A stretch of 32,000 nt of DNA from Formosa sp. Hel1_33_131 (GCF_001735745.1 NZ_CP017260.1:2490001-2522000), one strand, 5' to 3'. Shown: positions 4,492-19,877, numbered from the stretch's first letter. The notes: generated by a model not told the origin, from the letters alone. Numbers and translations: made by a program.

Positions 4492-4643
4492 TTACAATTA
4501 TACAAAAAATAAATCGATTAAACTCTTAAAATACCGATTAACGAGTAAAATTAATTTCGTTTAAATAATGTTATATAATGTTGTTCAGACAACAATTAAT
4601 ACTTACTTTTGCAGCCATTAAAAATCAAATAATAATAAAATTT

Positions 4644-4982
4644 ATGAATCATTACGAAACTGTTTTCATCTTGAATCCCGTTTTATCTGACACACAGATA
4701 AAGGAAACAGTAAAGAAATACGAGGACTTACTCGTTTCTAAAGGAGCAAAGATGGTATCGAAAGAAGATTGGGGGCTAAAGAAATTAGCGTATCCAATCC
4801 AAAACAAAAAAAGTGGCTTTTACCACTTATTTGAATTTACAGCACCTGGAGAGGCTATTGGCCCTTTAGAAGTAGAATTTAGACGTGACGAGCGTTTTAT
4901 GCGTTATCTAACTGTTAGTTTAGATAAACATGCAATCTCATGGGCTGAAAGAAGAAGAGTTAAACTTAAAGAAAAAGCGTAA
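4644..4982 (+). CDS. rpsF: 30S ribosomal protein S6
   Basis: [16 protein letters not shown]... is the canonical S6 N-terminus. The track ORF start at 4578 adds 22 implausible residues. Confidence 0.93.
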
Positions 4983-4984
4983 TT

Positions 4985-5278
4985 ATGTCTATAGAACAAC
5001 AAGCCAAAGGAAAAAAAGATGGTGAAATCAGATATTTAACGCCTTTAAATATTGACACCAACAAAGCTAAAAAATACTGTCGTTTCAAAAAATCAGGTAT
5101 CAAGTATATCGATTATAAAGATCCAGATTTTTTAATAAAATTTGTAAACGAACAAGGTAAGTTATTACCAAGACGTTTAACTGGAACCTCTTTAAAGTTT
5201 CAAAGAAAAGTGTCTGTTGCTGTCAAAAGAGCAAGACATTTAGCCTTGATGCCTTATGTAGCCGATTTAATGAAATAA
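4985..5278 (+). CDS. rpsR: 30S ribosomal protein S18
   Basis: Contains [27 protein letters not shown] and [11 protein letters not shown]. Conserved S6-S18-L9 gene order. Confidence 0.93.
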
Positions 5279-5291
5279 AACTATTATAACT

Positions 5292-5741
5292 ATGGAACTT
5301 ATATTAAAACATGACGTAGAAGGATTGGGGTTTAAAGACGATGTTGTAACAGTGAAAAACGGTTATGGTAGAAATTCTTTAATTCCGGGTGGTAAAGCCA
5401 TTCTTGCTACGGTATCTGCTAGAAAAGTATTAGCAGAAAACTTAAAACAACGCGCATTCAAAGAAAAGAAAATAGTAGATGAAGCCGAAGCAATTGCTGA
5501 AGCTTTAAAAGCTTTAGAAATCAAAATAGCAGCGAAAGTTGGTAGTGGAGATAAATTATTTGGATCTGTTAACAATATTGATTTAGCAGCAGCTATTGAA
5601 AAAGCAGGCCATTCAATTGACAAAAAATTTATCAATGTTACCGGTGGTAATGTAAAACGTCTTGGTAAATACAATGCAATCATTCGTCTTCACAGAGATG
5701 TAGCAGTTGATTTTCCTTTTGAAATTATTGCAGCTAAATAA
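5292..5741 (+). CDS. rplI: 50S ribosomal protein L9
   Basis: MELILKHDVEGLGFKDDVVTVKNGYGRN is the canonical L9 N-terminal domain. Confidence 0.93.
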   Translation: MELILKHDVEGLGFKDDVVTVKNGYGRNSLIPGGKAILATVSARKVLAENLKQRAFKEKKIVDEAEAIAEALKALEIKIAAKVGSGDKLFGSVNNIDLAAAIEKAGHSIDKKFINVTGGNVKRLGKYNAIIRLHRDVAVDFPFEIIAAK

Positions 5742-8800: not shown

Positions 8801-8984
8801 AATTAGATCAGAATGGGGCTTAGTACAACAGCCAAACAACACGTCTCCAGTAGGAGTGAGTGTTGATCCAGCAACTTTGGTACCAACTTATACATTCAAT
8901 CCGAACCAAACCGAAACATTTGGATACGATTCTAGTTTAGCATCAAGATGGCAAATGCAATTTGGATTGCGCTATATCTTCTAG
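5859..8984 (+). CDS. TonB-dependent outer-membrane receptor with an N-terminal carboxypeptidase-regulatory-like domain
   Basis: 1041 aa. Signal peptide, then a CarboxypepD_reg-like segment (GAISDETNTGLPGANVVAVHTPTGTTYGAATNIDGRFNLVNLRVGGPYTITVSYVGY), a plug and beta-barrel, and a C-terminal beta-signal ...QFGLRYIF*. Confidence 0.88.
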   Translation: MKQISTLLMFIFTCSLSFSQVTTSSIKGAISDETNTGLPGANVVAVHTPTGTTYGAATNIDGRFNLVNLRVGGPYTITVSYVGYKDQSFTDVFLTLGKTENLTLALTLDAGQLDAVVITANTSKGVFGSDRTGAETNVGRRELTTLPTISRSASDFTRLEPTASNGSFGGRNDQFNNFSLDGAIFNNPFGLDAATPGGQTNSQPVSLDAIDQIQVSTAPYDVTQSGFTGAAVNAVTKSGSNEFKGTVYGFYRNEDMTGSKIKGQEIFVPSLTQQQTGFSIGGPIVKNKLFFFANYEQDERSDLGQAWLPNTGSGAVNESVVLESDLIAVQNALSTLGYDTGTYQGFTHESASSKGIFKLDWNVNDNNQLAIIYNWLDASQEKPAHPSALGVRGPSATTLQFQNSGYQINNKLQSVQLELNSRLSDEVSNKLQVGYTNFDDFRNPMSSAAPAITIQNGAGQNYIIAGHEPFSVNNVLNQKVFQFSNNMTISKANHTYTVGFSFEKFEFDNSFNLGAYGYGNDDGYVGAFGAFGSMGDFLAASTNGLLSEALANAQTVKNADSWALAETNVGQLAFYLQDEWDVNDNFKLTYGLRFDKPLFFDSAQKAQEVIDVSFYQPEIPYVNPNTGEVQLLDSTQMPSNDWLVSPRVGFNYDVKGDSTIQLRGGSGLFTGRFPFVWLGNQIGNPNSYFYQMVDPDYKFPQVWRTNLGLDHKYDNGLILTADVSYTKDMNGAQVQNWGLTTPSGTLAGVDNRPYYTDADKINNAYVFTNSDKGRIWNASFKAQKTFDNGLYTMLAYSYLDSKDVNSIEAEITGDAFDFNPVVGDVNSDELSYSRYGDTHRLIGVVSKKWNYGTNKKWGTTLSTFFEYSRGGRFSYTYAGNINGDTSFQNNDLLYVPTSAEIQQMQFDPTGDPGQAAAFDNYIAQDDYLSGRRGQYAERYGAQAPWRGRWDVKFLQDYKIKISENKTNTIQFSVDVLNFGNLIRSEWGLVQQPNNTSPVGVSVDPATLVPTYTFNPNQTETFGYDSSLASRWQMQFGLRYIF

Positions 8985-9007
8985 TATTAATTCAATCTTA
9001 TTTTATA
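8956..9007 (+). repeat. att-like 52-bp segment, copy 1. It is the authentic 3' end of the receptor CDS plus a 22-bp core, attaattcaatcttattttata.
   Basis: Direct copies at 11233-11284 and 16249-16300. Copy 1 differs from copies 2 and 3 at 4 positions, all left of the 22-bp core. The core is identical in all three. Confidence 0.8.
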
Positions 9008-9186
9008 TAAATGCGTCCTAATTAGGGCGCATTTTTTTTGCATAGTGTAGTGATTTGTTATGTTGTATAAGCAACTAATTTAGTAAATACAAACTAAGTT
9101 TTAAACTAAAACTAGTTTTGTAAAAGTGTCTTTTTTAGCTCAGTTCTTTGTTACCACCACACGAAAGGATTCGTGCGGTAGCGGGG
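9008..9186 (+). repeat. Repeat X, copy 1 (conserved element end; contains the terminator hairpin and ends ...cacgaaaggattcgtgcggtagcgggg)
   Basis: Aligns without gaps to 11285-11463 with 2 mismatches by eye. Confidence 0.85.
9011..9039 (+). terminator. Rho-independent terminator after the receptor gene. It lies inside repeat X and recurs at 11288-11317.
   Basis: Stem atgcgtcct, loop aatt, stem agggcgcat, followed by a T8 run. Confidence 0.7.
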
Positions 9187-9210
9187 GAAAGGATTCGTGC
9201 GGTAGCGGGG
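9164..9210 (+). repeat. Tandem duplication (24 + 23 bp) of the terminal X motif aaaggattcgtgcggtagcgggg, exactly at the X/Y junction
   Basis: Copies at 9164-9187 and 9188-9210. The same motif is single-copy in X copy 2 (11441-11463). Confidence 0.9.
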
Positions 9211-9370
9211 TAACTGATTTTAGTACAAGCATCTTGCTTGCCCCCGCATCTATAATTCAAATAAAACAATCGCTTACAACGGGTCAAGCCGCTTATGAAG
9301 ATTTAGGGTCTAAAATCTATCAGATTTATGAAATAGTTTATAAACTTTAAAAAAAAGCATCAATTAATTT
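9211..9370 (+). repeat. Repeat Y, copy a (5' 160 bp only; more diverged)
   Basis: Aligns to 10997-11163 with a 7-bp indel (gatttag) and a few mismatches. Similarity stops at about 9370, where the truncated DUF1016 ORF begins. Confidence 0.8.
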
Positions 9371-9493
9371 ACCAAGTTCGAAATTTTGTCCAATATGGTA
9401 TTTGTTGAGTGATTTATATGCATTATATTTTGCAGAATTGATTGTATCAATTACTGCTTTAAAAAAATTATTATATGCTGTTAATTCACTCAT
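9347..9493 (-). pseudogene. N-terminal remnant (48 codons) of a DUF1016/YhcG-type PDDEXK nuclease gene, cut off at the Y-repeat boundary
   Basis: My own translation: MSELTAYNNFFKAVIDTINSAKYNAYKSLNKYHIGQNFELGKLIDAFF*. The pattern A.Y.A.K..N......(Y)WE(I)GK.I is typical of the N-terminus of proteins of about 350 aa in this family. The ORF is below the track size cut-off. Confidence 0.45.
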
Positions 9494-9508
9494 TCAGTTT
9501 GTTTATTA

Positions 9509-9568
9509 TCTCTCGCACACTTGTGAGAGAAATCATAAATACAAATTCTCGCACAACTGTGCGAGAAT
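9509..9568. promoter_or_regulatory. Two related palindromes: TCTCTCGCACAC/TTGTGAGAGA (9509-9530) and ATTCTCGCACA-ac-TGTGCGAGAAT (9545-9568)
   Basis: The second has perfect 11-bp arms. The two share the core TCTCGCACA..TGTG(C)GAGA and are 14 bp apart. They lie between the 57-aa ORF and the DUF1016 remnant and could be an operator pair or a terminator pair. Confidence 0.4.
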
Positions 9569-9601
9569 TTAAACATCAGTTTTTCTTTCTTAAAAACGCG
9601 A

Positions 9602-9775
9602 TTATTTACAAATTGTAATATATGCTGTTGGCATCCACCATAGATTTACACCAAACGCAACAGTTATTATTTCATATCCGTCATTTGATTTTTTGTTAAT
9701 TAAAATTTCAACATTTCTCCTTAATGTATTTGTTGACCACATCTCACTAATTTTAATTATTTCATATTTTTTCAT
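9602..9775 (-). CDS. Small hypothetical protein (57 aa), possibly DUF4177-like; cassette-borne
   Basis: My own translation: MKKYEIIKISEMWSTNTLRRNVEILINKKSNDGYEIITVAFGVNLWWMPTAYITICK*. It starts 53 nt after the cassette boundary at 9829. Its 3' end contains ATGCCAAC (9634-9627), the complement of the cassette start GTTGGCAT. It is below the track cut-off. Confidence 0.5.
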   Translation of the reverse strand: MKKYEIIKISEMWSTNTLRRNVEILINKKSNDGYEIITVAFGVNLWWMPTAYITICK

Positions 9776-9822
9776 AAATATTTCTTTTAGTTCTTGAATT
9801 CAGGTTTCAGTTTTTTAATAAA

Positions 9823-9957
9823 TGCCAACGTGTTCGTGTATGGTTAGTTGCGTTGGCTAGCAACTAAATTAGTAAAAGAAAACGAACCAGAGGGAAATCC
9901 GCTAGGATTTTCCGAGTACACACAGAATCAGCAATTAATTATACACGTTGTTAGTGG
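9823..9957 (-). other. attC-like recombination site A (135 bp), downstream of the TIR gene
   Basis: Read on the minus strand: CCACTAAC-aa-CGTGTAT ... internal hairpins (ggaaaatcc/ggatttcc, ttagttgc/gcaactaa) ... ATACACG-aacac-GTTGGCA. This has the R''-L''...L'-R' architecture of integron attC sites. Confidence 0.5.
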
Positions 9958-10044
9958 TAGTATTAATTTCGGGTTGCTTCATTAAAACTTTCTTCAATTC
10001 GTATGTTCAATGTTAATAAATTCCTTAAAATTTTAATTATGTTT

Positions 10045-10896
10045 TTATTTTAAATTATCATCAACCAGGTCTGCAAGTTTAACGTATATTTCTTCTCGAT
10101 CATTTTCATTTAACTTGCTTAACGGGTTCTTTGGGTCATTTAGGGATTGAAATTTGCTTAAAGTTGGAGTAGAAGTAAATCTACAAGGTTTAACAATAAT
10201 TGGAATAATTCTTTTTCCTTTCTCCTCTGCTGCTTTTAATAAAGGAGGTAATTCATTGTCAACAATAAAGTCCGAAGCCAGAAAATCTGCGCTTATAAGC
10301 AGAATAGCTATAGATGCTTTATCTAAAGCCTTGTCTATCTCCATTTTCCATTGATCTCCAGCATTTATTTTGGTATCAATCCAAAGATCAATTTGACCAC
10401 TTTTAATAAAAGGTTTAAGATGTACGGTTAGTCTATCAATTGTGTTTGAGTCCTTATGACTGTAACTTATAAAAACACTTTTAGTTATATTCTTTTCTTT
10501 CTTAATGAATTTTTTTACAGCTGCTGAAGTTTTATTTTTCTTCAGATAATTATCTAATGGAATAATTAATGTTTCATCTAACCTAAGTCTATCGTAATAA
10601 ATGGAGAAATATTTTTCTAGAAATGAACTGCTTTCTGATGTTATAAGAATAATTGGTTTTTCAAAAGCTCTTGCAATTGCAAATTCGCTAGTTAAATTTC
10701 CTTCATTCTCAGACACATCAACTATCACTAAGTCTGAATTTTTTATTTCTTCTCTGACTAATTCTTCAGTTTCACCTGCGTTTAAAAGGTCTTCATGGGT
10801 GCTCAGTGTATGACCCGCTGCTACAACGACATTGTTTACTTTGCTTAAAACGTCTTGATAGCTTGAATTATACCTGAATGCTAAAAATATTTTCAT
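10045..10896 (-). CDS. TIR-domain protein with an N-terminal nucleoside 2-deoxyribosyltransferase-like/TIR-like Rossmannoid domain (candidate NADase-type defence effector)
   Basis: The C-terminal half (VFISYSHKDSNTIDRL...ILLISADFLASDFIVDNELPPLL...IIPIIV) is a bacterial TIR domain with the conserved Glu in context. The N-terminal half (MKIFLAF...DLVIVDVSENEGNLTSEFAIARAFEKPIILI) resembles the NDT motif D.GT..E.G.A...KP. Confidence 0.85.
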   Translation of the reverse strand: MKIFLAFRYNSSYQDVLSKVNNVVVAAGHTLSTHEDLLNAGETEELVREEIKNSDLVIVDVSENEGNLTSEFAIARAFEKPIILITSESSSFLEKYFSIYYDRLRLDETLIIPLDNYLKKNKTSAAVKKFIKKEKNITKSVFISYSHKDSNTIDRLTVHLKPFIKSGQIDLWIDTKINAGDQWKMEIDKALDKASIAILLISADFLASDFIVDNELPPLLKAAEEKGKRIIPIIVKPCRFTSTPTLSKFQSLNDPKNPLSKLNENDREEIYVKLADLVDDNLK

Positions 10897-10911
10897 AGTT
10901 TGTTTTTATTA

Positions 10912-10996
10912 CCACTAACTCGTTATATGTCAACAAAAGGGTGTGTTAACGGTTATATATTCCGGGATAACACAATGTTTTAGTTGTTATTATTCG
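10912..10996 (-). other. Site B: attI-like or half-attC junction site between repeat Y and the TIR cassette. It ends (minus strand) ...CATATAAcgaGTTAGTGG.
   Basis: About 70% identical by eye to site D (15932-16024). It shares the ...AAC-n2-GTTATATG end with sites A and C but lacks their other end. It contains a direct GTTATAT repeat (10922 and 10952). Confidence 0.4.
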
Positions 10997-11232
10997 TAAC
11001 TGATTTTAGTACAAGCATCTTGCTTGCCCCCGCATCTATAATTCAAATAAAACAATCGCTTACAACGGGTCAAGCTGCTTATGAAGATTTAGATTTGGGG
11101 TCTAAAATCTATCAAACTTATGAAATAGTTTATAAACTTTAAAAAAAAGTATCCATTAATTTATGTAAACAGCTGTAAATAAATCAATTTTATTAATTTA
11201 CAGTCGCATGGTTCACTTAAAACTTGAATTTT
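10997..11232 (+). repeat. Repeat Y, copy b (full length)
   Basis: 11009-11284 matches 16025-16300 at 275 of 276 positions by eye (single difference tcaagc/ttaagc). Contains hairpins caagca-tct-tgcttg and ctgtaaat...atttacag. Confidence 0.9.
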
Positions 11233-11284
11233 TGCAATTTGGATTACGGTCTATCTTCTAGCATTAATTCAATCTTATTTTATA
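11233..11284 (+). repeat. att-like 52-bp segment, copy 2 (decoy receptor 3' end ...QFGLRSIF* plus the 22-bp core)
   Basis: Identical to copy 3 (16249-16300). Flanked on the left by Y and on the right by X, the junction expected between tandem elements (equivalent to attP). Confidence 0.8.
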
Positions 11285-11463
11285 TAAATGCGTCCTAATT
11301 AGGGCGCATTTTTTTTGCATTGTGTAGTGATTTGTTATGTTGTATAAGCACCTAATTTAGTAAATACAAACTAAGTTTTAAACTAAAACTAGTTTTGTAA
11401 AAGTGTCTTTTTTAGCTCAGTTCTTTGTTACCACCACACGAAAGGATTCGTGCGGTAGCGGGG
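11285..11463 (+). repeat. Repeat X, copy 2
   Basis: See X copy 1. It ends at gcgggg (11463), directly abutting the truncated methyltransferase ORF. Confidence 0.85.
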
Positions 11464-11640
11464 ATCGCTTATTATTTCTTTACTTTTATCTTCAACCAAC
11501 ACTGGTAATTCTCTTTCGCATTGCTCAGCAATTTCTTCAGGTTTGTCTTCCCAAACTAAACCGTACCGTTTTTTCTCTAATTGCTGTAATTTGGCAATGA
11601 GTTGTTCTTTACTATAATTATCGTATTTATTCTTTGCCAT
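11428..11640 (-). pseudogene. N-terminal fragment of a DNA methyltransferase gene (type III Mod or type IIG-like), truncated at the end of repeat X
   Basis: MAKNKYDNYSKEQLIAKLQQLEKKRYGLVWEDKPEEIAEQCERELPVLVEDKSKEIISD resembles the N-termini of such methyltransferases (YGLVWEDK motif). After codon 59 the reading frame runs into repeat X (PRYRTNPFVWW*). The ATG directly follows the abiEii stop. Confidence 0.55.
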
Positions 11641-12708
11641 TTATGCTGTTTTTATTTCGTAAATCTTGAACCAATAAAAAAATGCTTCAGGATTAGATTT
11701 TTTAAGTTTGTTTAGTTTGTTGTTCATTGGTTCGTTTATTTGCCATTCTTTCATTTGTATTTGGGTGTCATACTTTTCAATTTCTGTTTTCTCATATTTT
11801 ATTAATGTGATGAGATAAGCTGTTTTAGATGCTTGAGTAATTGCTTTTTCAATATGATAACTTTCAGAAAAAATATAAGCTCGTATTCTTTGTATTCCCA
11901 ACTGTAATTCTTCGAAATTCCCTATTCCATCTATTCCTCTACTTGCAATACAAAGGGAAGTTTGGTAAATATCTTCAATTACATCTTGTTCATTACAATC
12001 ATTAATATTTCTGTATGACAATTCAGTTTTTGCAAATTGGTAAAATGTGTTTTTTATAATATTTAAGTCAATTACTTTATCAAATAAATTCCCTACATCA
12101 TATAATTGCTTTATGATTTCCATACTCATACTGTTTTCACTTTTAAAGTATGGTATTCCTGTGGTATTGGGAGCAAAGGCAGTGAGCTTGTCTCCCAAAA
12201 TATCTTCCAAACAGGGAAGGTTTACAAGTAATGGTTTGTTAATAATCGGTACAAAATTAGATTCTATAGGCAGTTGGATTATTTTTTTGTAATCCGCCTT
12301 TTCAAATAATATATCAAGTAAAATATAATCTTCTGTTTTGTTTGATTTATGAAATGGAGTGTAGTAGAATTTAAAATGTGCTTTTGTGATTTTTGAATTT
12401 GTGTTTCGGTGTTGTAATTCTTTTCGTAAAAAACCTTGCTCGGTTGCCAAAGAATCTAATATGTCGTTTAGCCCAATATCCTCTTTAGGCAAAATAATAT
12501 CAATGTCAATAGAAAGTCTTTTAGTAGAATTGAAATGTAACATTAAAGCAGTTCCTCCTTTGAATACAAAGTCCAATTTTTGTTTCACAAGACCTTCTAA
12601 TAGAATCAATGCTCGAATAACCTTTTCGACAAGAATTTTATCAGCATTTTTATTTGCTTTTGAAACCTGATTAATCCATTTTATTGATATTTCTTTTTGA
12701 TTTATCAT
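11641..12708 (-). CDS. abiEii: AbiEii/AbiGii-family nucleotidyltransferase toxin (type IV TA / abortive infection)
   Basis: 355 aa. Contains FVFKGGTALMLHFNSTKRLSIDIDIILP, the DUF1814/AbiEii NTase signature. Located immediately downstream of an AbiEi-like gene. Confidence 0.85.
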   Translation of the reverse strand: MINQKEISIKWINQVSKANKNADKILVEKVIRALILLEGLVKQKLDFVFKGGTALMLHFNSTKRLSIDIDIILPKEDIGLNDILDSLATEQGFLRKELQHRNTNSKITKAHFKFYYTPFHKSNKTEDYILLDILFEKADYKKIIQLPIESNFVPIINKPLLVNLPCLEDILGDKLTAFAPNTTGIPYFKSENSMSMEIIKQLYDVGNLFDKVIDLNIIKNTFYQFAKTELSYRNINDCNEQDVIEDIYQTSLCIASRGIDGIGNFEELQLGIQRIRAYIFSESYHIEKAITQASKTAYLITLIKYEKTEIEKYDTQIQMKEWQINEPMNNKLNKLKKSNPEAFFYWFKIYEIKTA

Positions 12709-12756
12709 AAACTATAAATTGGCAGTAAATTAATTTTGTTGCCGTAAATTAGAATT
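12709..12756. promoter_or_regulatory. Operator-like site 1: aaactataaat + core TGGCAGTAAATTAATTTTGTTGCCG + taa + attagaatt. It overlaps the abiEi stop and the abiEii start region.
   Basis: 26 nt (12719-12744) are the exact reverse complement of 13512-13537, yet the flanks aaactataaat and attagaatt are in direct orientation at both sites. Confidence 0.5.
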
Positions 12757-13434
12757 AATATATGTTTTAAGTTCTTCTTTTTTTCCTCTCCTGTTGGCAT
12801 AACGTAACAACTTACTTTTATTGATTGAGTATTTTGAAAAAGCTTCATTATAAATAGTTCTCATTTCATTACCTTGATATGCCGAAAAGATGATTTCATC
12901 ACAAAAAACATCTACTAATATTTTTTCTAAAGAAGAAGTGTTTATTCCATCTATGTTTTGTGTAGGAGCTTCAGTTATTAGTGTTTTAACAATTATTAAA
13001 TTATTGTTCTCTGTTATGTATTTTTCAAAAACATCTTTTGAAGGTTCTAAAAAGACTGAGTATTTGTTTTCTTTTAAATAAAGAAATATGGCTTGTGTTG
13101 CTTCTTTCTCAACTTCAATTAATAAATAGAATTGATTGGCTTGATGCAGGGTAAATTCATTAAGAATAGAAGAATTCCAGATGCAAGATTCTAAATATGG
13201 AAAATGTTTTTTTATTTTTTTACTTAGAATTTTTTCTTTTGAAGAAATCTCAGGAATAAAATAATTCATTGCTCCAAGAGTAAATATTCCTTTTCCAATT
13301 CGTTTAAGAACACCTTGTTTTATCAAAGTAAATACTCGCCAATTGATAGTCGTTTGACTAATATTGGGTTCAAACCCTTTAAAGAAATTAGCAATGTCAG
13401 TTGTTTCAAAGCTTTTTCGATTTTTGAAAAACAT
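12730..13434 (-). CDS. abiEi: AbiEi-family antitoxin/transcriptional regulator
   Basis: 234 aa. N-terminal winged-helix-like segment (FETTDIANFF...TINWRVFTLIKQGVLKRIGKGIFTLG) and operon partner of AbiEii. Confidence 0.8.
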   Translation of the reverse strand: MFFKNRKSFETTDIANFFKGFEPNISQTTINWRVFTLIKQGVLKRIGKGIFTLGAMNYFIPEISSKEKILSKKIKKHFPYLESCIWNSSILNEFTLHQANQFYLLIEVEKEATQAIFLYLKENKYSVFLEPSKDVFEKYITENNNLIIVKTLITEAPTQNIDGINTSSLEKILVDVFCDEIIFSAYQGNEMRTIYNEAFSKYSINKSKLLRYANRRGKKEELKTYINSNLRQQN

Positions 13435-13500
13435 TGTTAATTTTTCAATATGTAACTTGTCTTTAGCGATAGTATTTCTTTTTAACTCAGCAAATGTACA

Positions 13501-13548
13501 AAACTATAAATCGGCAACAAAATTAATTTACTGCCAATTATTAGAATT
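13501..13548. promoter_or_regulatory. Operator-like site 2 in the abiEi promoter region (same flanks, inverted core)
   Basis: See site 1. On the minus strand this site is followed by TAGTTTTG and TACATTTG, both matching the TAnnTTTG -7 consensus, upstream of the abiEi ATG. Confidence 0.5.
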
Positions 13549-13780
13549 CTGTTAGCGTGGGGAAGATTAAGCTCTTTTGGTTTTTATGTGTTGGCTTTTG
13601 TGTAGGCAAAAACCAAATGTGCTTAATGTGCGGCTGGCTTTTTTCGGTATGAAACACAACGTGTTTGTATATGGAAAGTTGCGTGTTTGCGTGCGAGGAT
13701 TTTCCGTAGGAAAATCAGACGTAGCAAACGTGCAACGACCTTTGTTTAAGCCAAAACCAGCAATTTTTTATATACAGTGT

Positions 13781-15499
13781 GCCTGTTGCACAACTATTTA
13801 TGATAAAACTACAAAATAAGTTTTAAATTTTCATAAAAATTCTTAAATTTATGGATGCAAGGAAAAAAGACCTACCAAGAAAAGCTGTTTGCTTGCTTTA
13901 GTTTGAGCGAACGGATACCAAAAGATAATTTTTATCGCCAGTTAGGAAACGTTTTAGAATTAGAATATTTGTATCGCTTGACGCGTTCTTATTATGGGAC
14001 AAGTGGACAAAAAAGCGTAGATCCCGTAGTTTTTTTCAAACTGTGTTTGGTCGGATATTTAGAAAACATCATTAGCGATCGCAAATTGATATCCCATTGC
14101 AGTATGCGTATGGATATTTTGTATTTCCTCGGCTATGACATCGATGATGAACTTCCATGGCATTCAACGATCAGTCGTACACGTCAGTTGTTTCCCGAAA
14201 GCCTGTTTGAAGAGGCCTTTACCAAAGTGTTAGAATTATGTATTTCCAAAGGCATGGTCAGCGGTCACACCCAAACCATCGACTCAGCCCCAGTAAAAGC
14301 CAATGCATCCATGGACAGTTTAGAGCTCAAAGTTCCCAAAGAAGACTTAGAAACACACTTGCATCAGCTCCGTCATATCAGCCGAATGGATAAGCCCCAT
14401 CGTCAAGCCAAAGACAATAAAGCCCCTAAAACCCAACAAACCCTTAGTGCCAATAAGCAAGAACTAGGCGCAATAAAGAGTCGCAACAAGAAATGGTCAA
14501 ACGACCAAGACCAGCGACCCGGTGCAGGGAACAAAGGCAGTAAATACACCAGTAATAAGACCCATTACAGTCCCACCGACCCCGATGCCCGAATCAGTGT
14601 AAAACCAGGCAAAGCCAGAAAGCTCAATTATATGAGTCAACTTAGTGTGGACACCGCCCATCATGTCATCACCGACATCCAAGCCTACCATGCCGATAAG
14701 AAAGACAATCAATACTTGCAAGATATCGTAAAACGATTAGACAAGCGTTTATGGAAACAAGGATTACTATGGCAAAACTGTGTCGCCGACACAGGATATA
14801 GCAGTGGCGAGAACTATGCCTTTTTAGAAGGCGTCAACAAACAAAGTTTCATTCCTCCGCATGGCACCTACAAAGGTGGTCCCGAGGGATTTGTTTACCA
14901 TAAAAAAGAGGATCATTACGTATGTCCACAAGGGGAAGTGATTCCCTTCAAAAAAGTATTTAACGATTATAGAACCCACACGAGAAAGAAAGAATACCGC
15001 GGTTCGACCAAACAATGCAAAGGCTGTCCAATAGCACTCCAATGCTTGGGGAAAACAGCCAAAGAAAAGAAGTTTTCAGTGACCTATTACCGAGAGGAAT
15101 ATGAGCGAAACAATGCCCGAGTGCACAGCAAACAAGGACGCTTTATGAAACGCAAACGTCAAAGCACCGTAGAACCTGTTTTTGGAACACTCACTCAGTT
15201 TATGGGCCTGAGAAAGATCAACACCCTTGGCATACAACAAGCCAACAAAGTCATGCACTTATCTGCGATGGCTTACAACCTGAAAAAGTATCTAAAATTC
15301 ACTCAGAAACTGGCAAGAAGTGAGGCGAAATCACTTGGGGTTGTTTTTTTAGAAATAACCCTCTTTATAAAGGTGTTTTGGTCTTGTGTAAGCCCCTCAA
15401 AAAAACAAAATAGCACACTCATTTTTTAATAATACATCCTGTAAATCGGCTTAAAAAGGAAGGTTTTTTACTTTTTTAGAGGGCTTGTGCAACGGTTAC
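13781..15499 (+). mobile_element. IS1182-family insertion sequence (about 1.72 kb)
   Basis: A single transposase ORF. Imperfect terminal inverted repeats centred on GTTGCACAA (13786-13794; reverse complement at 15486-15494). Flanking 6-bp direct repeat CAGTGT (13775-13780 and 15500-15505). Confidence 0.75.
13855..15429 (+). CDS. IS1182-family (IS5-like DDE) transposase
   Basis: 524 aa. N-terminal DUF772-type domain (SVDPVVFFKLCLVGYLENIISDRKLISHCSMRMDILYFLGYDIDDELPWHSTISRTR) and a C-terminal DDE region (CVADTGYSSGENY...VEPVFGTLTQFMGLRKINTLG). Confidence 0.88.
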   Translation: MQGKKTYQEKLFACFSLSERIPKDNFYRQLGNVLELEYLYRLTRSYYGTSGQKSVDPVVFFKLCLVGYLENIISDRKLISHCSMRMDILYFLGYDIDDELPWHSTISRTRQLFPESLFEEAFTKVLELCISKGMVSGHTQTIDSAPVKANASMDSLELKVPKEDLETHLHQLRHISRMDKPHRQAKDNKAPKTQQTLSANKQELGAIKSRNKKWSNDQDQRPGAGNKGSKYTSNKTHYSPTDPDARISVKPGKARKLNYMSQLSVDTAHHVITDIQAYHADKKDNQYLQDIVKRLDKRLWKQGLLWQNCVADTGYSSGENYAFLEGVNKQSFIPPHGTYKGGPEGFVYHKKEDHYVCPQGEVIPFKKVFNDYRTHTRKKEYRGSTKQCKGCPIALQCLGKTAKEKKFSVTYYREEYERNNARVHSKQGRFMKRKRQSTVEPVFGTLTQFMGLRKINTLGIQQANKVMHLSAMAYNLKKYLKFTQKLARSEAKSLGVVFLEITLFIKVFWSCVSPSKKQNSTLIF

Positions 15500-15520
15500 C
15501 AGTGTTGGCAATAGTATTTT

Positions 15521-15892
15521 TTATTCAGTTAGATTTTCCGTTATAGATTTCAGAGTTTCAATTTTCGGCATTTCTGTAATTTCAGATTCTCCATCTATTG
15601 AGTAAAATTCCAATTCAGTCGGCATTTGGTCAGTTCCGAATACAGATATTCCAATTAATTCTCCGTTTTTACCTTTTCCATCGTAATCTATTATTAAATT
15701 CCCTTTTTGAATTTCCGAGTCAAATGTTTTTCCAAATATTATAGTCGGACATTTTCCGCAACCACATCTCGCAATAACTTTCAGATTTCCGATTAAATTA
15801 GTCCACTCCGATTTTTCTTTTCCAAACAGATAAGTCAGAAATTCAATTTCGGATTTTGTCAATGCTCTTTTATCTGGAATGCTATATTTCAT
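15521..15892 (-). CDS. Hypothetical cassette protein (123 aa) with a CGCGKC motif
   Basis: An intact ORF that is the only coding sequence in a cassette of about 554 bp (excluding IS and TSD) bounded by sites D and C. I do not recognise the family. Confidence 0.6.
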   Translation of the reverse strand: MKYSIPDKRALTKSEIEFLTYLFGKEKSEWTNLIGNLKVIARCGCGKCPTIIFGKTFDSEIQKGNLIIDYDGKGKNGELIGISVFGTDQMPTELEFYSIDGESEITEMPKIETLKSITENLTE

Positions 15893-15931
15893 TAATCAAA
15901 TTGTTCATTTTTTTACGTTCCGTTGATATTA

Positions 15932-16024
15932 TTGCCAACTGGTTATATGGAGAACAAACCTCCTGTTTATACGTCTCTATTTCCGGATAATAGGAACTTT
16001 TGGTTTCTTTATCCAAAATCAAAT
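15932..16024 (-). other. Site D: attI-like or half-attC junction site between repeat Y and the 123-aa cassette. It ends (minus strand) ...CCATATAAccaGTTGGCAA.
   Basis: Homologous to site B. Contains GTTATATG (15942-15949) and GTTTATAC (15965-15972). Confidence 0.4.
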
Positions 16025-16248
16025 GTACAAGCATCTTGCTTGCCCCCGCATCTATAATTCAAATAAAACAATCGCTTACAACGGGTTAAGCTGCTTATGA
16101 AGATTTAGATTTGGGGTCTAAAATCTATCAAACTTATGAAATAGTTTATAAACTTTAAAAAAAAGTATCCATTAATTTATGTAAACAGCTGTAAATAAAT
16201 CAATTTTATTAATTTACAGTCGCATGGTTCACTTAAAACTTGAATTTT
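16025..16248 (+). repeat. Repeat Y, copy c
   Basis: Together with the att segment that follows, it matches copy b at 275 of 276 positions. It lacks the first 12 nt of Y (taactgatttta). Confidence 0.9.
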
Positions 16249-16300
16249 TGCAATTTGGATTACGGTCTATCTTCTAGCATTAATTCAATCTTATTTTATA
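16249..16300 (+). repeat. att-like 52-bp segment, copy 3 (attR-like); followed by unique chromosomal sequence aatttgcacactgcaaatagg
   Basis: Identical to copy 2. Homology to X is absent to its right. Confidence 0.8.
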
Positions 16301-16348
16301 AATTTGCACACTGCAAATAGGACACATTTTTTTTAACTATAATCAAGG

Positions 16349-16859: not shown

Positions 16860-18230
16860 ATGGTATCTAAACCACGCATATCTAAAGGAACGCGAGATTT
16901 TTCTCCAAAGCAGTTGGCAAATCGCGACTACATTTTTAGTACCATAAAATCAAATTTTAAAAAATTTGGATTCCAGCCCATTGAAACACCGAGTTTTGAA
17001 TTGGCGGAAACCTTATTGGGGAAATATGGAGAAGAAGGAGATCGCCTCATTTTTAAGATTTTAAACTCTGGCGATAAAGTCAAAAAAGCAGATTTGCAAG
17101 CCCTTGAAGATGGCAACTTAGCACGCTTTTCAAATTCACTCACAGAGAAAGCTTTGCGCTACGATCTGACTGTGCCTTTTGCACGTTATGTAGCACAATA
17201 CCAAAACGATATTGTATTCCCATTCAAACGCTATCAAATTCAACCCGTTTGGCGGGCCGATCGTCCTCAAAAAGGACGGTTTCAAGAATTTTATCAGTGT
17301 GATGCGGATGTGGTCGGCTCCAAATCCTTATGGCAAGAAATTGAATTCATTCAATTGTATGACGCCGTTTTTTCAGATTTAAACCTAAAGGGCGTTACCA
17401 TAAAAATAAACAACAGAAAAATATTAGCAGGCATCGCCGAATTGATTGGTGCTCAAGACAAGCTCATCGATTTTACGGTCGCTTTGGATAAGCTTGATAA
17501 AATAGGAGCGGAAAAAGTTAAAGAAGAAATGCTTAAAAAAGGCATCACTTCTGAAGGCATTTCTAAACTCGAACCTCTTTTTAATTTGACAGGTGATTTC
17601 TCAGATCAATTACAATCTTTAAAATCAATTTTAAGCACTTCTACGGAAGGCATAAAAGGCGTAGAAGAACTAGAGTTTATTGCGTCTTCTGTGGCTGCAT
17701 TAGGGCTTAAAACTGCCAAACTACAAATGGATGTCACCCTAGCACGGGGTCTTAATTACTACACAGGTGCTATTTTTGAAGTGGCTGCACCAGAATCTGT
17801 ACAAATGGGTTCCATTGGCGGCGGTGGTCGTTACGATGATTTGACCGGCATATTTGGACTCAAAGATGTGAGTGGGGTAGGGATTAGTTTTGGATTGGAC
17901 CGAATTTATTTGGTCTTGGAAGAATTAAACTTATTTCCAACAGATAAAACACTATCCACCAAAGTACTTTTTATCAATTTTGGAACTTCAGAAAGTTTGT
18001 ACAGCTTAAAAGCGATTACAGCCTTGAGATCAAAATCCATTGCCACTGAATTATATCCGGATGCTGCGAAGCTAAAAAAGCAAATGATGTACTGCAACAA
18101 GCGCGAAATACCTTATGTAGTTATGGTTGGAGAATCGGAAATAGAACAGAATAAATACTTGTTAAAAGACATGAATTCTGGGGAGCAGCAATTGGTTGCT
18201 TTAGAGGAACTTATGAAAATCGTTTCTTAA
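16860..18230 (+). CDS. hisS: Histidine--tRNA ligase
   Basis: 456 aa. Class II motifs (RYDLTVPFARY, FKRYQIQPVWRADRPQKGRFQEFYQCD, GGGGRYD, GISFGLDR). Confidence 0.95.
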   Translation: MVSKPRISKGTRDFSPKQLANRDYIFSTIKSNFKKFGFQPIETPSFELAETLLGKYGEEGDRLIFKILNSGDKVKKADLQALEDGNLARFSNSLTEKALRYDLTVPFARYVAQYQNDIVFPFKRYQIQPVWRADRPQKGRFQEFYQCDADVVGSKSLWQEIEFIQLYDAVFSDLNLKGVTIKINNRKILAGIAELIGAQDKLIDFTVALDKLDKIGAEKVKEEMLKKGITSEGISKLEPLFNLTGDFSDQLQSLKSILSTSTEGIKGVEELEFIASSVAALGLKTAKLQMDVTLARGLNYYTGAIFEVAAPESVQMGSIGGGGRYDDLTGIFGLKDVSGVGISFGLDRIYLVLEELNLFPTDKTLSTKVLFINFGTSESLYSLKAITALRSKSIATELYPDAAKLKKQMMYCNKREIPYVVMVGESEIEQNKYLLKDMNSGEQQLVALEELMKIVS

Positions 18231-18232
18231 TA

Positions 18233-18270
18233 TTTTTGCAAAAAACACCTCCTTTTCTTATATTTGGATT
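18233..18270 (+). promoter_or_regulatory. Bacteroidota-type promoter of TA-like module 1 (TTG at 18236-18238, TATATTTG at 18259-18266)
   Basis: Matches the -33 TTG / -7 TAnnTTTG consensus. The same block (tttgc..aaaa.c.tc.ttttc..tatattt) precedes modules 2 (18734-18766) and 3 (19222-19253). Confidence 0.5.
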
Positions 18271-18285
18271 ATAAACATTAAAAAA

Positions 18286-18477
18286 ATGACCACAATTACG
18301 ATTGAAAACGGCAAAGATCTTCCCCAAAAAACATTTAGCAATTGGGAAGAACTGCGAAATATATTGAATTTTATGGCGCTTCAGTTTAAGCAAACTAAAG
18401 AATCTTCTACCATACCCGAAAATCTAAAAGAGAAACCATTATCAGCTTTCAACTACCTGACTGATGAAAGTTTATGA
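18286..18477 (+). CDS. Putative antitoxin of TA-like module 1 (63 aa)
   Basis: Starts MTTITIENGKDLP. Upstream partner, overlapping the next ORF by 14 nt. Paralogous to 18786-18977 and 19274-19474. Confidence 0.55.
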   Translation: MTTITIENGKDLPQKTFSNWEELRNILNFMALQFKQTKESSTIPENLKEKPLSAFNYLTDESL

Positions 18478-18700
18478 AACTGACACAGCAGTTGCCTATT
18501 TAAAAAAGAGAGAACTCATTAAACCGTATCTCAAAGCCAAACAATACTTTGAGCAAGGACATACTCGAATGGTTAAGCTAAAACTATTACAACCTAAGAA
18601 AAATAAAGAATACCAATTTAGGATAAACGATAAATATCGTGCTCGTGGTTTTTACAAAGAAAACGGTTTTTTGGTCACTGAAATATCCGACCATCAGTAA
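18464..18700 (+). CDS. Putative RelE/ParE/HigB-superfamily-like toxin of module 1 (78 aa)
   Basis: ...YQFRINDKYRARGFYKENGFLVTEISDHQ* resembles the HigB/ParE-like C-terminal pattern (RIN..YR..F.......V.I.DH). The family assignment is tentative. Confidence 0.5.
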   Translation: MKVYETDTAVAYLKKRELIKPYLKAKQYFEQGHTRMVKLKLLQPKKNKEYQFRINDKYRARGFYKENGFLVTEISDHQ

Positions 18701-18785
18701 AACTTCAAGAGATATTCCCCCACCCAAACAAAAATTTGCACAAAAACCCTCTTTTCCATATATTTAACTGTTAATAATAAAAAAA

Positions 18786-18977
18786 ATGACGACAATTACT
18801 ATCAAAGACGGACAAAAATTACCAAAAACTGAGTTTGGAACAATCAAAGATTTTCTAGAATGGGCTGTTGATCATTTTCAAGAAGAAATACCTTTGTCAG
18901 AAAAAACTATCAAGAAAGCAGCAAAAGCCAAGAAAGAAATTTCATCGCCAAACTCAACTTTTAAACCGGCATTATAA
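18786..18977 (+). CDS. Putative antitoxin of TA-like module 2 (63 aa)
   Basis: Starts MTTITIKDGQKLP. Its stop overlaps the next start as TAATG. Confidence 0.55.
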   Translation: MTTITIKDGQKLPKTEFGTIKDFLEWAVDHFQEEIPLSEKTIKKAAKAKKEISSPNSTFKPAL

Positions 18978-19213
18978 TGCTCGTGTTTGATAATGAAAAT
19001 GCTCGAAAAGATTTACAAAAATTTCAATTAACCAAGCAATACAAAAAAGCTTGTGATTATATTCGTGATGACCAATATTATAAGGTTCAATTAAAACTGC
19101 GGAAACCGAAATCAAAAGGTATTTACCAGTTTAGAATTTATAAAAAATACCGTGCCTTTGCTATCAAAAAAGAACAAACTTTATTTGTTTTTGAAATCTT
19201 CGACCATCAGTAA
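18977..19213 (+). CDS. Putative RelE/ParE-like toxin of module 2 (78 aa)
   Basis: ...YQFRIYKKYRAFAIKKEQTLFVFEIFDHQ*, paralogous to 18464-18700. Confidence 0.5.
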   Translation: MLVFDNENARKDLQKFQLTKQYKKACDYIRDDQYYKVQLKLRKPKSKGIYQFRIYKKYRAFAIKKEQTLFVFEIFDHQ

Positions 19214-19273
19214 AACAAAAATTTGCCCAAAAAACCTCTTTTCCGTATATTTGGACTGTAAATAATAAAAAAA

Positions 19274-19474
19274 ATGACCACAATTACCATAAAAGAAGGC
19301 AACGCTTTATCCCGTTCTGTATTTTGAACATTTGAAGATCTCATTGAGGAGTACTACGCTTCCAAAGGAGTTGTGTTATTACATCAAATTGATCTAGAAG
19401 ACTTGCCAGCAGCCTCTCAAAAGTTGATTGAAGAATCCAAGAAAAAGGGAAAAAAAGATTTGCATGATTTTTAG
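19274..19474 (+). pseudogene. Antitoxin-like gene of module 3, interrupted by an in-frame TGA at 19325-19327
   Basis: MTTITIKEGNALSRSVF*TFEDLIEEYYASKG...HDF*. The frame is otherwise open to 19474. Missing from the ORF track because of the stop. Confidence 0.7.
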
Positions 19475-19476
19475 GG

Positions 19477-19713
19477 ATGAAAGTAAGAGAAAGACAGAAA
19501 GCCATTGATTATTTAAAGAAAAGACAACTCGAAACATCGTACTTTAAAGCAAAATCATATTTATCTAAAGACCAATTCAAAATGGTCGATTTTAAATTGA
19601 GACAACCAAAATCAGATGGAATTTATTATTTTCGAATCACCCGAAAATACTAGGCTATAGGTCACTTTATCGATGATGTTTTTGTTGTTACTGAAATCTC
19701 TGATCATCAGTGA
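19477..19713 (+). pseudogene. Toxin-like gene of module 3, interrupted by an in-frame TAG at 19651-19653
   Basis: MKVRERQKAIDYLKKRQLETSYFKAKSYLSKDQFKMVDFKLRQPKSDGIYYFRITRKY*AIGHFIDDVFVVTEISDHQ*. The TAG replaces the conserved Arg codon (KYRA) of modules 1 and 2. Confidence 0.7.
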
Positions 19714-19757
19714 AACTTCAGAATAAACAGCACAAAAGAAAACTTGTTTTTAGCCAT

Positions 19758-19787: not shown

Positions 19788-19803
19788 CTTTGATTATCTA
19801 GTA

Positions 19804-19877
19804 GCGAGAGCGGGGCACGATCCCGCGACCTCCGGGTTATGAATCCGACGCTCTAACCAGCTGAGCTACCTCGCCAT
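19804..19877 (-). tRNA. tRNA with a CAT anticodon (Met, or Ile2 if lysidine-modified); 74 nt, no encoded CCA
   Basis: Minus strand: GGCGAGG-TA-GCTCAGCTGGTTAGAGC-G-TCGGA-TTCATAA-CCCGG-AGGTC-GCGGG-ATCGTGC-CCCGC-TCTCGCT-A. This folds as a cloverleaf. The acceptor stem has G1.U72 and G7.U66. Confidence 0.85.

Follow-up and report, generated by a model that had tools for sequence, protein, structure and literature searches.

The 32,000 nt of Formosa sp. Hel1_33_131, a marine bacterium, considered here (GCF_001735745.1, NZ_CP017260.1:2490001-2522000), which are referred to as the window, contain an island of 7.4 kb (8985-16348) between a TonB-dependent receptor gene and DUF6495/hisS (HisS, AOR29452.1), all else in the window being housekeeping. 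The cargo of the island is a TIR protein (AOR29444.1), an AbiEii/DUF6577 pair, and two small proteins of unknown kind. It is the organization of these genes into cassettes that resemble those of integrons, each with its own structured recombination-type site, that is described here.

An initial annotation, made from the sequence alone, had identified integron-like cassettes on the minus strand of this island, in which the first bases of each cassette are the complement of a box in its own attC-like site. The three box pairs on which this was based have all been re-found. The TIR cassette start GTTAGTGGTA (10919-10910) is complementary at 10/10 positions to the box of its own site, TACCACTAAC (9959-9950), as is the start of the cassette encoding a 123-aa protein, GTTGGCAATA (15939-15930), to TATTGCCAAC (15513-15504), and the start of the cassette with a 57-aa open reading frame (ORF), GTTGGCAT (9829-9822), is complementary to ATGCCAAC (9634-9627) at 8/8 positions. 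Each of the 10-mers is unique on its strand in the window. There are three copies of the 8-mer of the 57-aa cassette on its strand, and this third pair is therefore weak if taken alone. The TIR and 123-aa pairs belong to sites of approximately 131 nt, whereas the third is a truncated half-site only. The sites of the TIR and 123-aa cassettes, designated A and C, are clearly homologous and, on re-reading, do have the one architecture that had been claimed for them: xxxxAAC, 2 nt, a 7 nt box, the centre, a complementary 7 nt box, AACAC, and GTT.

AAC and GTT do not vary across 127 aligned sites, and the flanking box positions fit GTTR... loosely, not the strict GTTRRRY; the departures from the canon that had been pointed out in the window, spacers of 2 nt versus 5 nt and boxes that are not strict, are seen in the family as well. 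A 17 bp stem joins both arms and is continuous on the bottom strand only. Compensatory changes are present at five to six of the stem pairs, as in CGTGTAT/ATACACG, CGTATAT/ATATACA, and CATATAT/ATATATA. On the bottom strand 99.2% of the cells of the alignment are paired, as against 26-52% when the partners are slid, and the covariation score is 0.274 versus 0.111 in shuffles, with 0 out of 500 reaching 0.274. At three to four stem positions, in 87-127 of the 127 sites, the top strand has A opposite C, corresponding to G.T on the bottom strand; G.T is hardly ever found on the top strand. By alifold, the consensus energy of the bottom strand is -20.4, as against -7.5 for the top. Since the G.T wobbles, pairing, covariation, and energies all favour the bottom strand, this is the strand that is built to fold, as is also the case for attC sites (PMC7439510). 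The base after AAC on the bottom strand is G, as it is in most attC sites (PMC2727003).

The 17 bp L stem is without bulges, and the sole asymmetry is in the spacer, with 2 nt along the R''-L'' arm as against 5 nt along the R'-L' arm. Extrahelical bases on the R''-L'' arm are part of the definition of a canonical attC site (PMC2727003), the criterion being two to three extrahelical bases together with an unpaired central spacer (PMC2727003, PMC7439510). In the present sites the unpaired spacer is found, but the two or three extrahelical bases on the R''-L'' arm are absent. The initial annotation had advised folding the bottom strands and checking them for extrahelical bases, and of these it is the hairpin, with covariation, that is there. 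A minimum-energy fold of site A, which pairs AACGTGT with ACACGTT, was dropped in favour of the 17 bp L stem, which is backed by covariation. A covariance model (R1) built from 30 sites, all of other genomes, identifies site A at 9820-9959 and the 3' part of site C at 13651-13787 (scores in Table 1), with the third site (9588-9636) at 14.8 bits (E 0.048). In this last, the R'' box and an L''-like box are correctly spaced, but the 3' half is missing; it is a truncated 5' half.

When a 25 nt degenerate pattern was scanned against a collection of species-representative genomes, at least 120 stretches matched, and among the matches listed all are from the Flavobacteriales, including the genera Psychroserpens, Winogradskyella, Polaribacter, Lacinutrix, Algibacter, Confluentibacter, Maribacter, Zobellia, Cellulophaga, and Tenacibaculum, among others. 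Arrays reach eight sites in 6.8 kb, in Confluentibacter citreus (L095; L numbers are used for collected loci). There were 11 matches in a viral scan with a 17 nt pattern from the 3' ends of sites, of which 10 are chance and one, in a phage contig, is real. Within the arrays, the box with which each site opens is matched, as its reverse complement, by the bases that follow the preceding ...AACAC|GTT. This own-cassette complement rule holds at 6/7 positions or more for 43 of 66 consecutive site pairs, versus 3 of 160 in a same-site control, a difference well beyond what chance would give. The exceptions mostly span long gaps, in which a site of another subtype was probably missed. The cassettes that could be delimited (n = 43) have a median length of 777 nt (range 482-2030), and in 40 of the 43 the main ORF is in the same sense, with its start 10-45 nt after GTT and its stop approximately 12 nt before the AAC box. 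Further subtypes carry AGACC, AAACC, or GAGACC before GTT in place of AACAC (L097 at approximately 1930-1960; L087; L152-L154). Since these were missed by the search pattern, the family is larger than the number of matches would imply.

Most of 45 cassette proteins have no Pfam match, and the rest include ParE, AbiH, SLATT, SUKH/SMI1, TPM, and RDD; in L154 the cargo includes a HinfI restriction-modification pair and a Macro-domain protein. This profile, of unknown proteins, toxin-antitoxin, and anti-phage functions (TIR, AbiE, AbiH, ParE, SLATT, and the restriction-modification pair), is like the cargo of sedentary chromosomal integrons. Foreign DNA has taken the place of the 5' box of a site in several genomes (L046 at 4545-5600; L052, L065, L091, L113, and L116). 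In L046 there is an IS110-family ORF approximately 200 nt from the truncated site, and L052, L065, L091, L113, and L116 have a common junction, ...AACTTAAG|(A/C)CGTGTAT. The replaced 5' boxes suggest that insertion sequence (IS) elements may be targeting these sites. IS1111-attC elements target integron attC sites.

The same locus is present in 10 metagenome contigs, in which the right flank of 5.65 kb is 98.1-99.8% identical (at least 99.5% in 9 of the 10), and these were taken as a set of strains. Between the window and these 10 strains there are 11 different first cassettes directly after the attI-like site of type 1, all of them joined at GTT. The AbiE cassette (cassette 2 in Table 1), which starts with GTTGTGTTTCATACC, follows attI in four strains, whereas in the window and five strains it follows attC 3' ends that differ in sequence, with the junction always at GTT. 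To be preceded by attI in some strains and by differing attC in others is the pattern expected if new cassettes insert at attI. At one and the same attI, individual cassettes may be there or missing while the remaining module is unchanged, and it is therefore not the case that the units never move independently, which had been raised as a possibility at the outset. The 123-aa cassette of the window has counterparts in Winogradskyella ludwigii (L097, 96.7% identity), Olleya (L087, 93.5%), and L136 (87.6%), behind other attC sites in all three genomes and with the homology starting exactly at GTT. Other cassettes are likewise common to several genera. Comparison of related genomes for cassettes in other contexts, as the initial annotation had advised, has thus placed the 123-aa and AbiE cassettes behind differing sites, and the units are true cassettes, with borders at G|TT, that are polymorphic between strains and common to several genera.

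Four metagenome contigs (L007-L010) of 1.05-1.13 kb, corresponding to 10971-9839 of the window, cover the TIR cassette unit only, which fits assembly graphs that branch at cassette borders. A scan for other contexts of the TIR cassette start gave 0 matches in a metagenome collection that is incomplete, as Joint Genome Institute (JGI) contigs with this start exist. The phage contig L021 (IMGVR_UViG_3300031965_001060) has an insert of 1.15 kb at 1467-2657, between the portal and scaffold genes, that has AATCCTAA repeats on either side and comprises 60 nt resembling attI, a single cassette whose ORFs encode 92 aa and 135 aa and whose site is complete, and a further 45 nt. Phage L142 is 99% identical to L021 and is without the insert, according to a protein-based search. 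The exact empty-site pattern for the phage had no match.

Clustering of all of the ORFs of the fetched loci identified a recombinase family in 11 loci, to which L154 is added as a twelfth. In these 12 loci, which are of other genera, there is a homologous tyrosine recombinase of 345-404 aa, encoded on the cassette strand directly upstream of the first cassette. In L154, the order is pnp, recombinase, attI, and then at least six chained cassettes. A conserved ...ATATAAC..|GTT junction is 27-136 nt past the recombinase stop codon in the 12 loci, and the own box of the first cassette is found downstream of it, at 9-10/10 matches, in 11 loci (L154 is not in this count). There are thousands of homologues of this recombinase, and those that are named are all from Flavobacteriaceae. 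The initial annotation had offered either a cluster of attC sites lacking integron-integrases (CALIN) or an attC-like system with an unrecognised recombinase; the second of these is supported, by this candidate family beside such arrays in other Flavobacteriaceae.

The recombinase has Phage_int_SAM_4 and Phage_integrase domains, and its best-scoring model is NF040815 of NCBI, "site-specific tyrosine recombinase/integron integrase", at 225 bits (cutoff 220). TIGR02249, the integron integrase model, is matched in two blocks, with profile positions of approximately 180-240 skipped, at 192-205 bits (cutoff 265). Residues of approximately 199-248 of VchIntIA (2a3v), the IntI-specific insertion, have no counterpart. 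In an AlphaFold model (pLDDT, the predicted local distance difference test, 83) there is a folded alpha/beta N-terminal domain of approximately 90-100 residues that is absent from IntI and Xer. By Foldseek, the remainder is nearest to XerA and IntI4; for the catalytic and core-binding domains the closest match is archaeal XerA (4a8e, 5hxy), with IntI4 and XerD at a comparable level.

In the window, approximately 50 nt before each attI-like site (ends 15940 and 10920) align with the int 3' end and attI of intact platforms (...LSRNI* versus ...LSGNI*). In the metagenome contig L156, the type 2 attI of the window is preceded by 34 codons that remain of the recombinase C-terminus (tblastn, E 1.6e-4). 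Searching the window with the full recombinase by tblastn gave nothing significant, the short 3' remnant being visible by DNA alignment only, and a loose attI pattern, which was too strict, had 0 matches in the collected loci. With the recombinase gene of the window reduced to a few 3' codons, which are fused to a repeat, any enzyme would have to act in trans.

The features of the island are listed in Table 1. Repeats do enclose the cassettes, as had been recognised in the initial annotation, and the "X...Y elements" described there are tandem modules, each bounded by core59 (59 nt copied from the end of the TonB-receptor gene), repeat B (224 nt, in place of the recombinase gene), and A_rest. 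From its sequence, the island appears to be two tandem platforms that are without a recombinase, with a module plan of core59, B, remnant/attI, cassettes, and A_rest. The same module plan is found in the 10 strains, with one or two modules in each. Cassette 2 is cut off by A_rest and has lost its own attC, and the distal core59 (8956-9014) overlaps the real end of the TonB-receptor gene.

Table 1. Features of the cassette island, in the order in which they are read on the minus strand.
Feature	Coordinates	Strand	Details and basis
core59 copy	16249..16307	-	last 29 nt of TonB-receptor gene and terminator; module boundary beside DUF6495; same order in 10 strains
Repeat B copy 3	16025..16248	-	224 nt; upstream of attI-like site, where intact platforms have the recombinase gene
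Recombinase 3'-end remnant and attI-like site type 1, ending ...CTCCATATAACCA|GTT	15940..16024	-	aligns with int 3' end and attI of L092 and L121
Cassette 1, 123-aa ORF 15521-15892	13660..15938	-	approximately 554 nt without the IS; related cassettes in L097, L087, L136
attC-like site C, 5' part (TATTGCCAAC AC TG)	15500..15513	-	split from 3' part by IS
IS inside 5' stem of site C	13780..15499	+	transposase 13855-15429, DDE_Tnp_1_6 and DUF772
attC-like site C, 3' part, ending ...CCATATACAAACAC|GTT	13660..13774	-	covariance model R1, 96.7 bits, E 4.9e-24
Cassette 2: DUF6577 12730-13434, AbiEii toxin 11641-12708, 70-aa fragment 11428-11640	11464..13659	-	Pfam
A_rest, decayed 3' half of terminal attC, without GTT	11292..11463	-	compared with family consensus
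core59 copy, boundary between modules	11233..11291	-	repeat families
Repeat B copy 2	11009..11232	-	repeat families
Recombinase 3'-end remnant (...IVLSRNI*) and attI-like site type 2, ending ...ACATATAACGA|GTT	10920..11008	-	DNA alignment
Cassette 3, TIR-domain protein 10045-10896	9829..10918	-	1090 nt; Pfam TIR_2, E 9.5e-21
attC-like site A, complete	9829..9959	-	131 nt; covariance model R1, 123.9 bits, E 2.5e-31
Cassette 4, 57-aa ORF 9602-9775, site 5' half only	9588..9828	-	ATGCCAAC AG CATATAT at 9634-9618
Scrambled distal end	8956..9371	-	truncated B 9210-9371, 23 nt duplication 9187-9209, A_rest 9015-9186, core59 8956-9014

The CACTG that flanks the IS within site C is a probable target duplication. 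This IS is at the identical position in the strain locus L151, where its gene is split in two. Fragments of the 5' ends of genes are present on the minus strand at the repeat borders, a 70-aa N-terminal piece (11428-11640) fused to A_rest and a piece of approximately 48 aa (at approximately 9372-9490) fused to the truncated B. The 70-aa fragment has no match in a Pfam search; the two pieces presumably resemble a DNA methyltransferase and a DUF1016/YhcG nuclease at their N-terminal ends. Two similar GC-rich hairpins, TCTCGCACAgtTGTGCGAGA (9571-9542) and TCTCTCACAagTGTGCGAGAGA (approximately 9530-9509), are on the minus strand between the truncated third site and the gene fragment.

Taken with the site family, the turnover of cassettes, and the linked recombinase, the island is very probably a pair of tandem platforms, without a recombinase, that belong to an integron-like system of gene capture widespread in Flavobacteriaceae. 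In this system, a cassette is one compact gene, or a few, together with a site of approximately 131 nt. The bottom strand of the site folds into an R stem (xxxxAAC/GTTxxxx), an asymmetric loop of 5 nt versus 2 nt, the 17 bp L stem, and a variable tip. In the mechanism proposed, a recombinase related to Xer and IntI, encoded upstream in intact platforms, would join this folded site to a double-stranded attI-like site (...ATATAAC..|GTT) or to another cassette site. The crossover would be within GTT, and it is therefore proposed that cassettes are inserted first in line and are excisable as circles; the circular TIR cassette would carry the junction ...CATACACGAACACG|TTAGTGGTAA. In Formosa sp. 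Hel1_33_131, the recombinase gene has decayed to its last codons and turnover would be by an enzyme supplied in trans.

Several observations weigh against this interpretation. The initial annotation saw no intI, and there is indeed no recombinase gene of any kind in the 32 kb of the window, nor in any of the 10 strain loci, such that activity in the Formosa species would depend upon an unseen enzyme acting in trans. It is from its adjacency to the arrays that the linked recombinase would be taken to catalyse the cassette reaction. The stem is bulge-free and has its extra nucleotides on the R'-L' arm, opposite to canonical attC, and the mechanistic details may differ from those of integrons. 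Homologous recombination across the conserved B and A_rest/core59 repeats, and not site-specific events, could account for some of the differences between strains. For the insertion in phage L021, a clean site x GTT event is ruled out by the comparison with L142.

It might be argued that the sites are extragenic palindromes, terminators, or the ends of miniature inverted-repeat transposable elements (MITEs) or transposons, with the 8-10-mers as terminal inverted repeats and the variation being due to transposition or homologous recombination. The sites are highly conserved intergenic repeats of approximately 131 nt just past stop codons, IS elements are associated with them, and the long direct repeats that flank the modules of the window could support homologous exchange. 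The complementary 7-10-mers are, however, specific to each cassette and pair its start with a box approximately 130 nt before its end, not end to end; there are no family-wide terminal inverted repeats at both extreme ends, as the initial annotation had considered, and no target-site duplications at the cassette borders. Neighbouring units use one common GTT, single cassettes differ in their presence at one attI, and a conserved recombinase-attI unit heads the arrays. This is the least probable of the alternatives. Only a little less improbable is an ordinary integron remnant, a CALIN of canonical attC sites on which a true IntI, possessing the IntI-specific domain, acts from another locus of the genome. 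Integrons do have the same AAC...GTT boxes, own-cassette rule, bottom-strand folding, and cassette organization, and the bottom-strand G after AAC is as in most attC (PMC2727003), but none of the recombinases beside arrays in the 12 loci has the IntI insertion, all falling short of the TIGR02249 cutoff, and the sites lack extrahelical bases on the R''-L'' arm. In the 2022 IntegronFinder survey of complete genomes, the Bacteroidetes have In0 and one Salinibacter integron only, and with IntegronFinder 2.0 there is no CALIN or complete integron in the Flavobacteriia (PMC9024848).

A Xer-type module system, similar to the pdif modules of Acinetobacter plasmids and to integrative mobile elements exploiting Xer (IMEX), in which host XerC/XerD or a paralogue acts and the adjacent recombinase is not a dedicated integrase, is improbable as well, if slightly less so. 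For the adjacent recombinase, the scores against XerD, XerC, and archaeal XerA are only slightly below that against IntI, and its catalytic and core-binding domains are closest to those of archaeal XerA. Xer enzymes use the folded single-stranded attP of CTX phage, which is a precedent for a folded single-strand substrate. Against this, the Flavobacteriaceae enzyme is a dedicated one, linked to the array at its head, with its own attI and an extra N-terminal domain, and there is no link to dif or FtsK. The sites are structured and approximately 131 nt long, not 28 bp and dif-like, and the arrays are unidirectional, whereas pdif sites alternate in orientation.

The integron-like gene-capture system is functionally similar to integrons in many respects. 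There are arrays of compact, mostly single-ORF, co-oriented cassettes, with an imperfect palindrome at the end of each cassette, between ...AAC and GTT..., and with the start of the cassette complementary to the inner box of this site; it is the bottom strand that folds, new cassettes appear at an attI-like site next to a recombinase gene, and the sites are homogeneous within a genus, as are the Vibrio cholerae repeats (VCRs) of Vibrio. In contrast to integrons, the IntI-specific insertion, which is the I2 helix region, is missing from the recombinase, and an additional N-terminal domain, folded and of approximately 100 aa, is present; the recombinase gene runs in the same direction as the cassettes, with 27-136 nt between its end and the crossover. 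The sites are bulge-free, with the loop of 5 nt versus 2 nt having its extra nt on the R'-L' arm and with conserved G.T wobbles, and the boxes are GTTR..., not strict GTTRRRY. The hosts are Flavobacteriaceae, a family in which integron surveys have reported next to nothing. For IntegronFinder the IntI_Cterm profile is obligatory, and tyrosine recombinases without it are not IntI according to its authors (PMC4889954). The system is judged to be active and functionally integron-like while lacking two of the defining features that were tested, the IntI additional domain and the extrahelical bases, and having the other testable ones.

On balance, it seems likely that this is a separate class of integron in the Flavobacteriaceae, in which a Xer/IntI-like integrase without the IntI additional domain would read bulge-free, wobble-marked hairpins by way of the asymmetric loop and a new N-terminal domain. 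It would be active in algal-bloom populations, moving anti-phage and toxin genes between genera, with attI and cassette pieces even in phage genomes, and would be either an early branch or an independent invention. No published description of the system was found in the accessible literature, of which coverage was partial, so an earlier description is possible. The integron is the textbook gene-capture device and, to our knowledge, is regarded as nearly absent from the Bacteroidota; if there is a separate class, then the integron surveys have missed a phylum-level reservoir, and an extension of the detection tools that depend on the IntI_Cterm profile and on the present attC model would be needed. 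A second solution to gene capture would distinguish the indispensable features of integron recombination from those that can be spared: it has the AAC/GTT crossover, bottom-strand hairpin, and unpaired spacer in common with integrons, and has neither the IntI domain nor the extrahelical bases. It would also explain the rapid strain-level variation of defence genes in the ecologically dominant marine Flavobacteriaceae, and would offer a new, possibly orthogonal, structure-specific recombination tool.

An Rfam scan of the window, with E up to 1, found a tRNA and a chance GcvB match only, Rfam having no attC family. The number of sigma-70 promoters found in a scan of the island is not above that in shuffles, with a scan model that does not cover Bacteroidota promoters. 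Beside the tRNA (19802-19875, minus strand), three tandem units of approximately 500 nt are present at 18230-19716 on the plus strand, each with a 63-aa and a 78-aa ORF that have no Pfam match. By their look these are a triplicated toxin-antitoxin-like pair, with in-frame stops in the third copy and conserved unit ends (...GACCATCAGTAAAAC).

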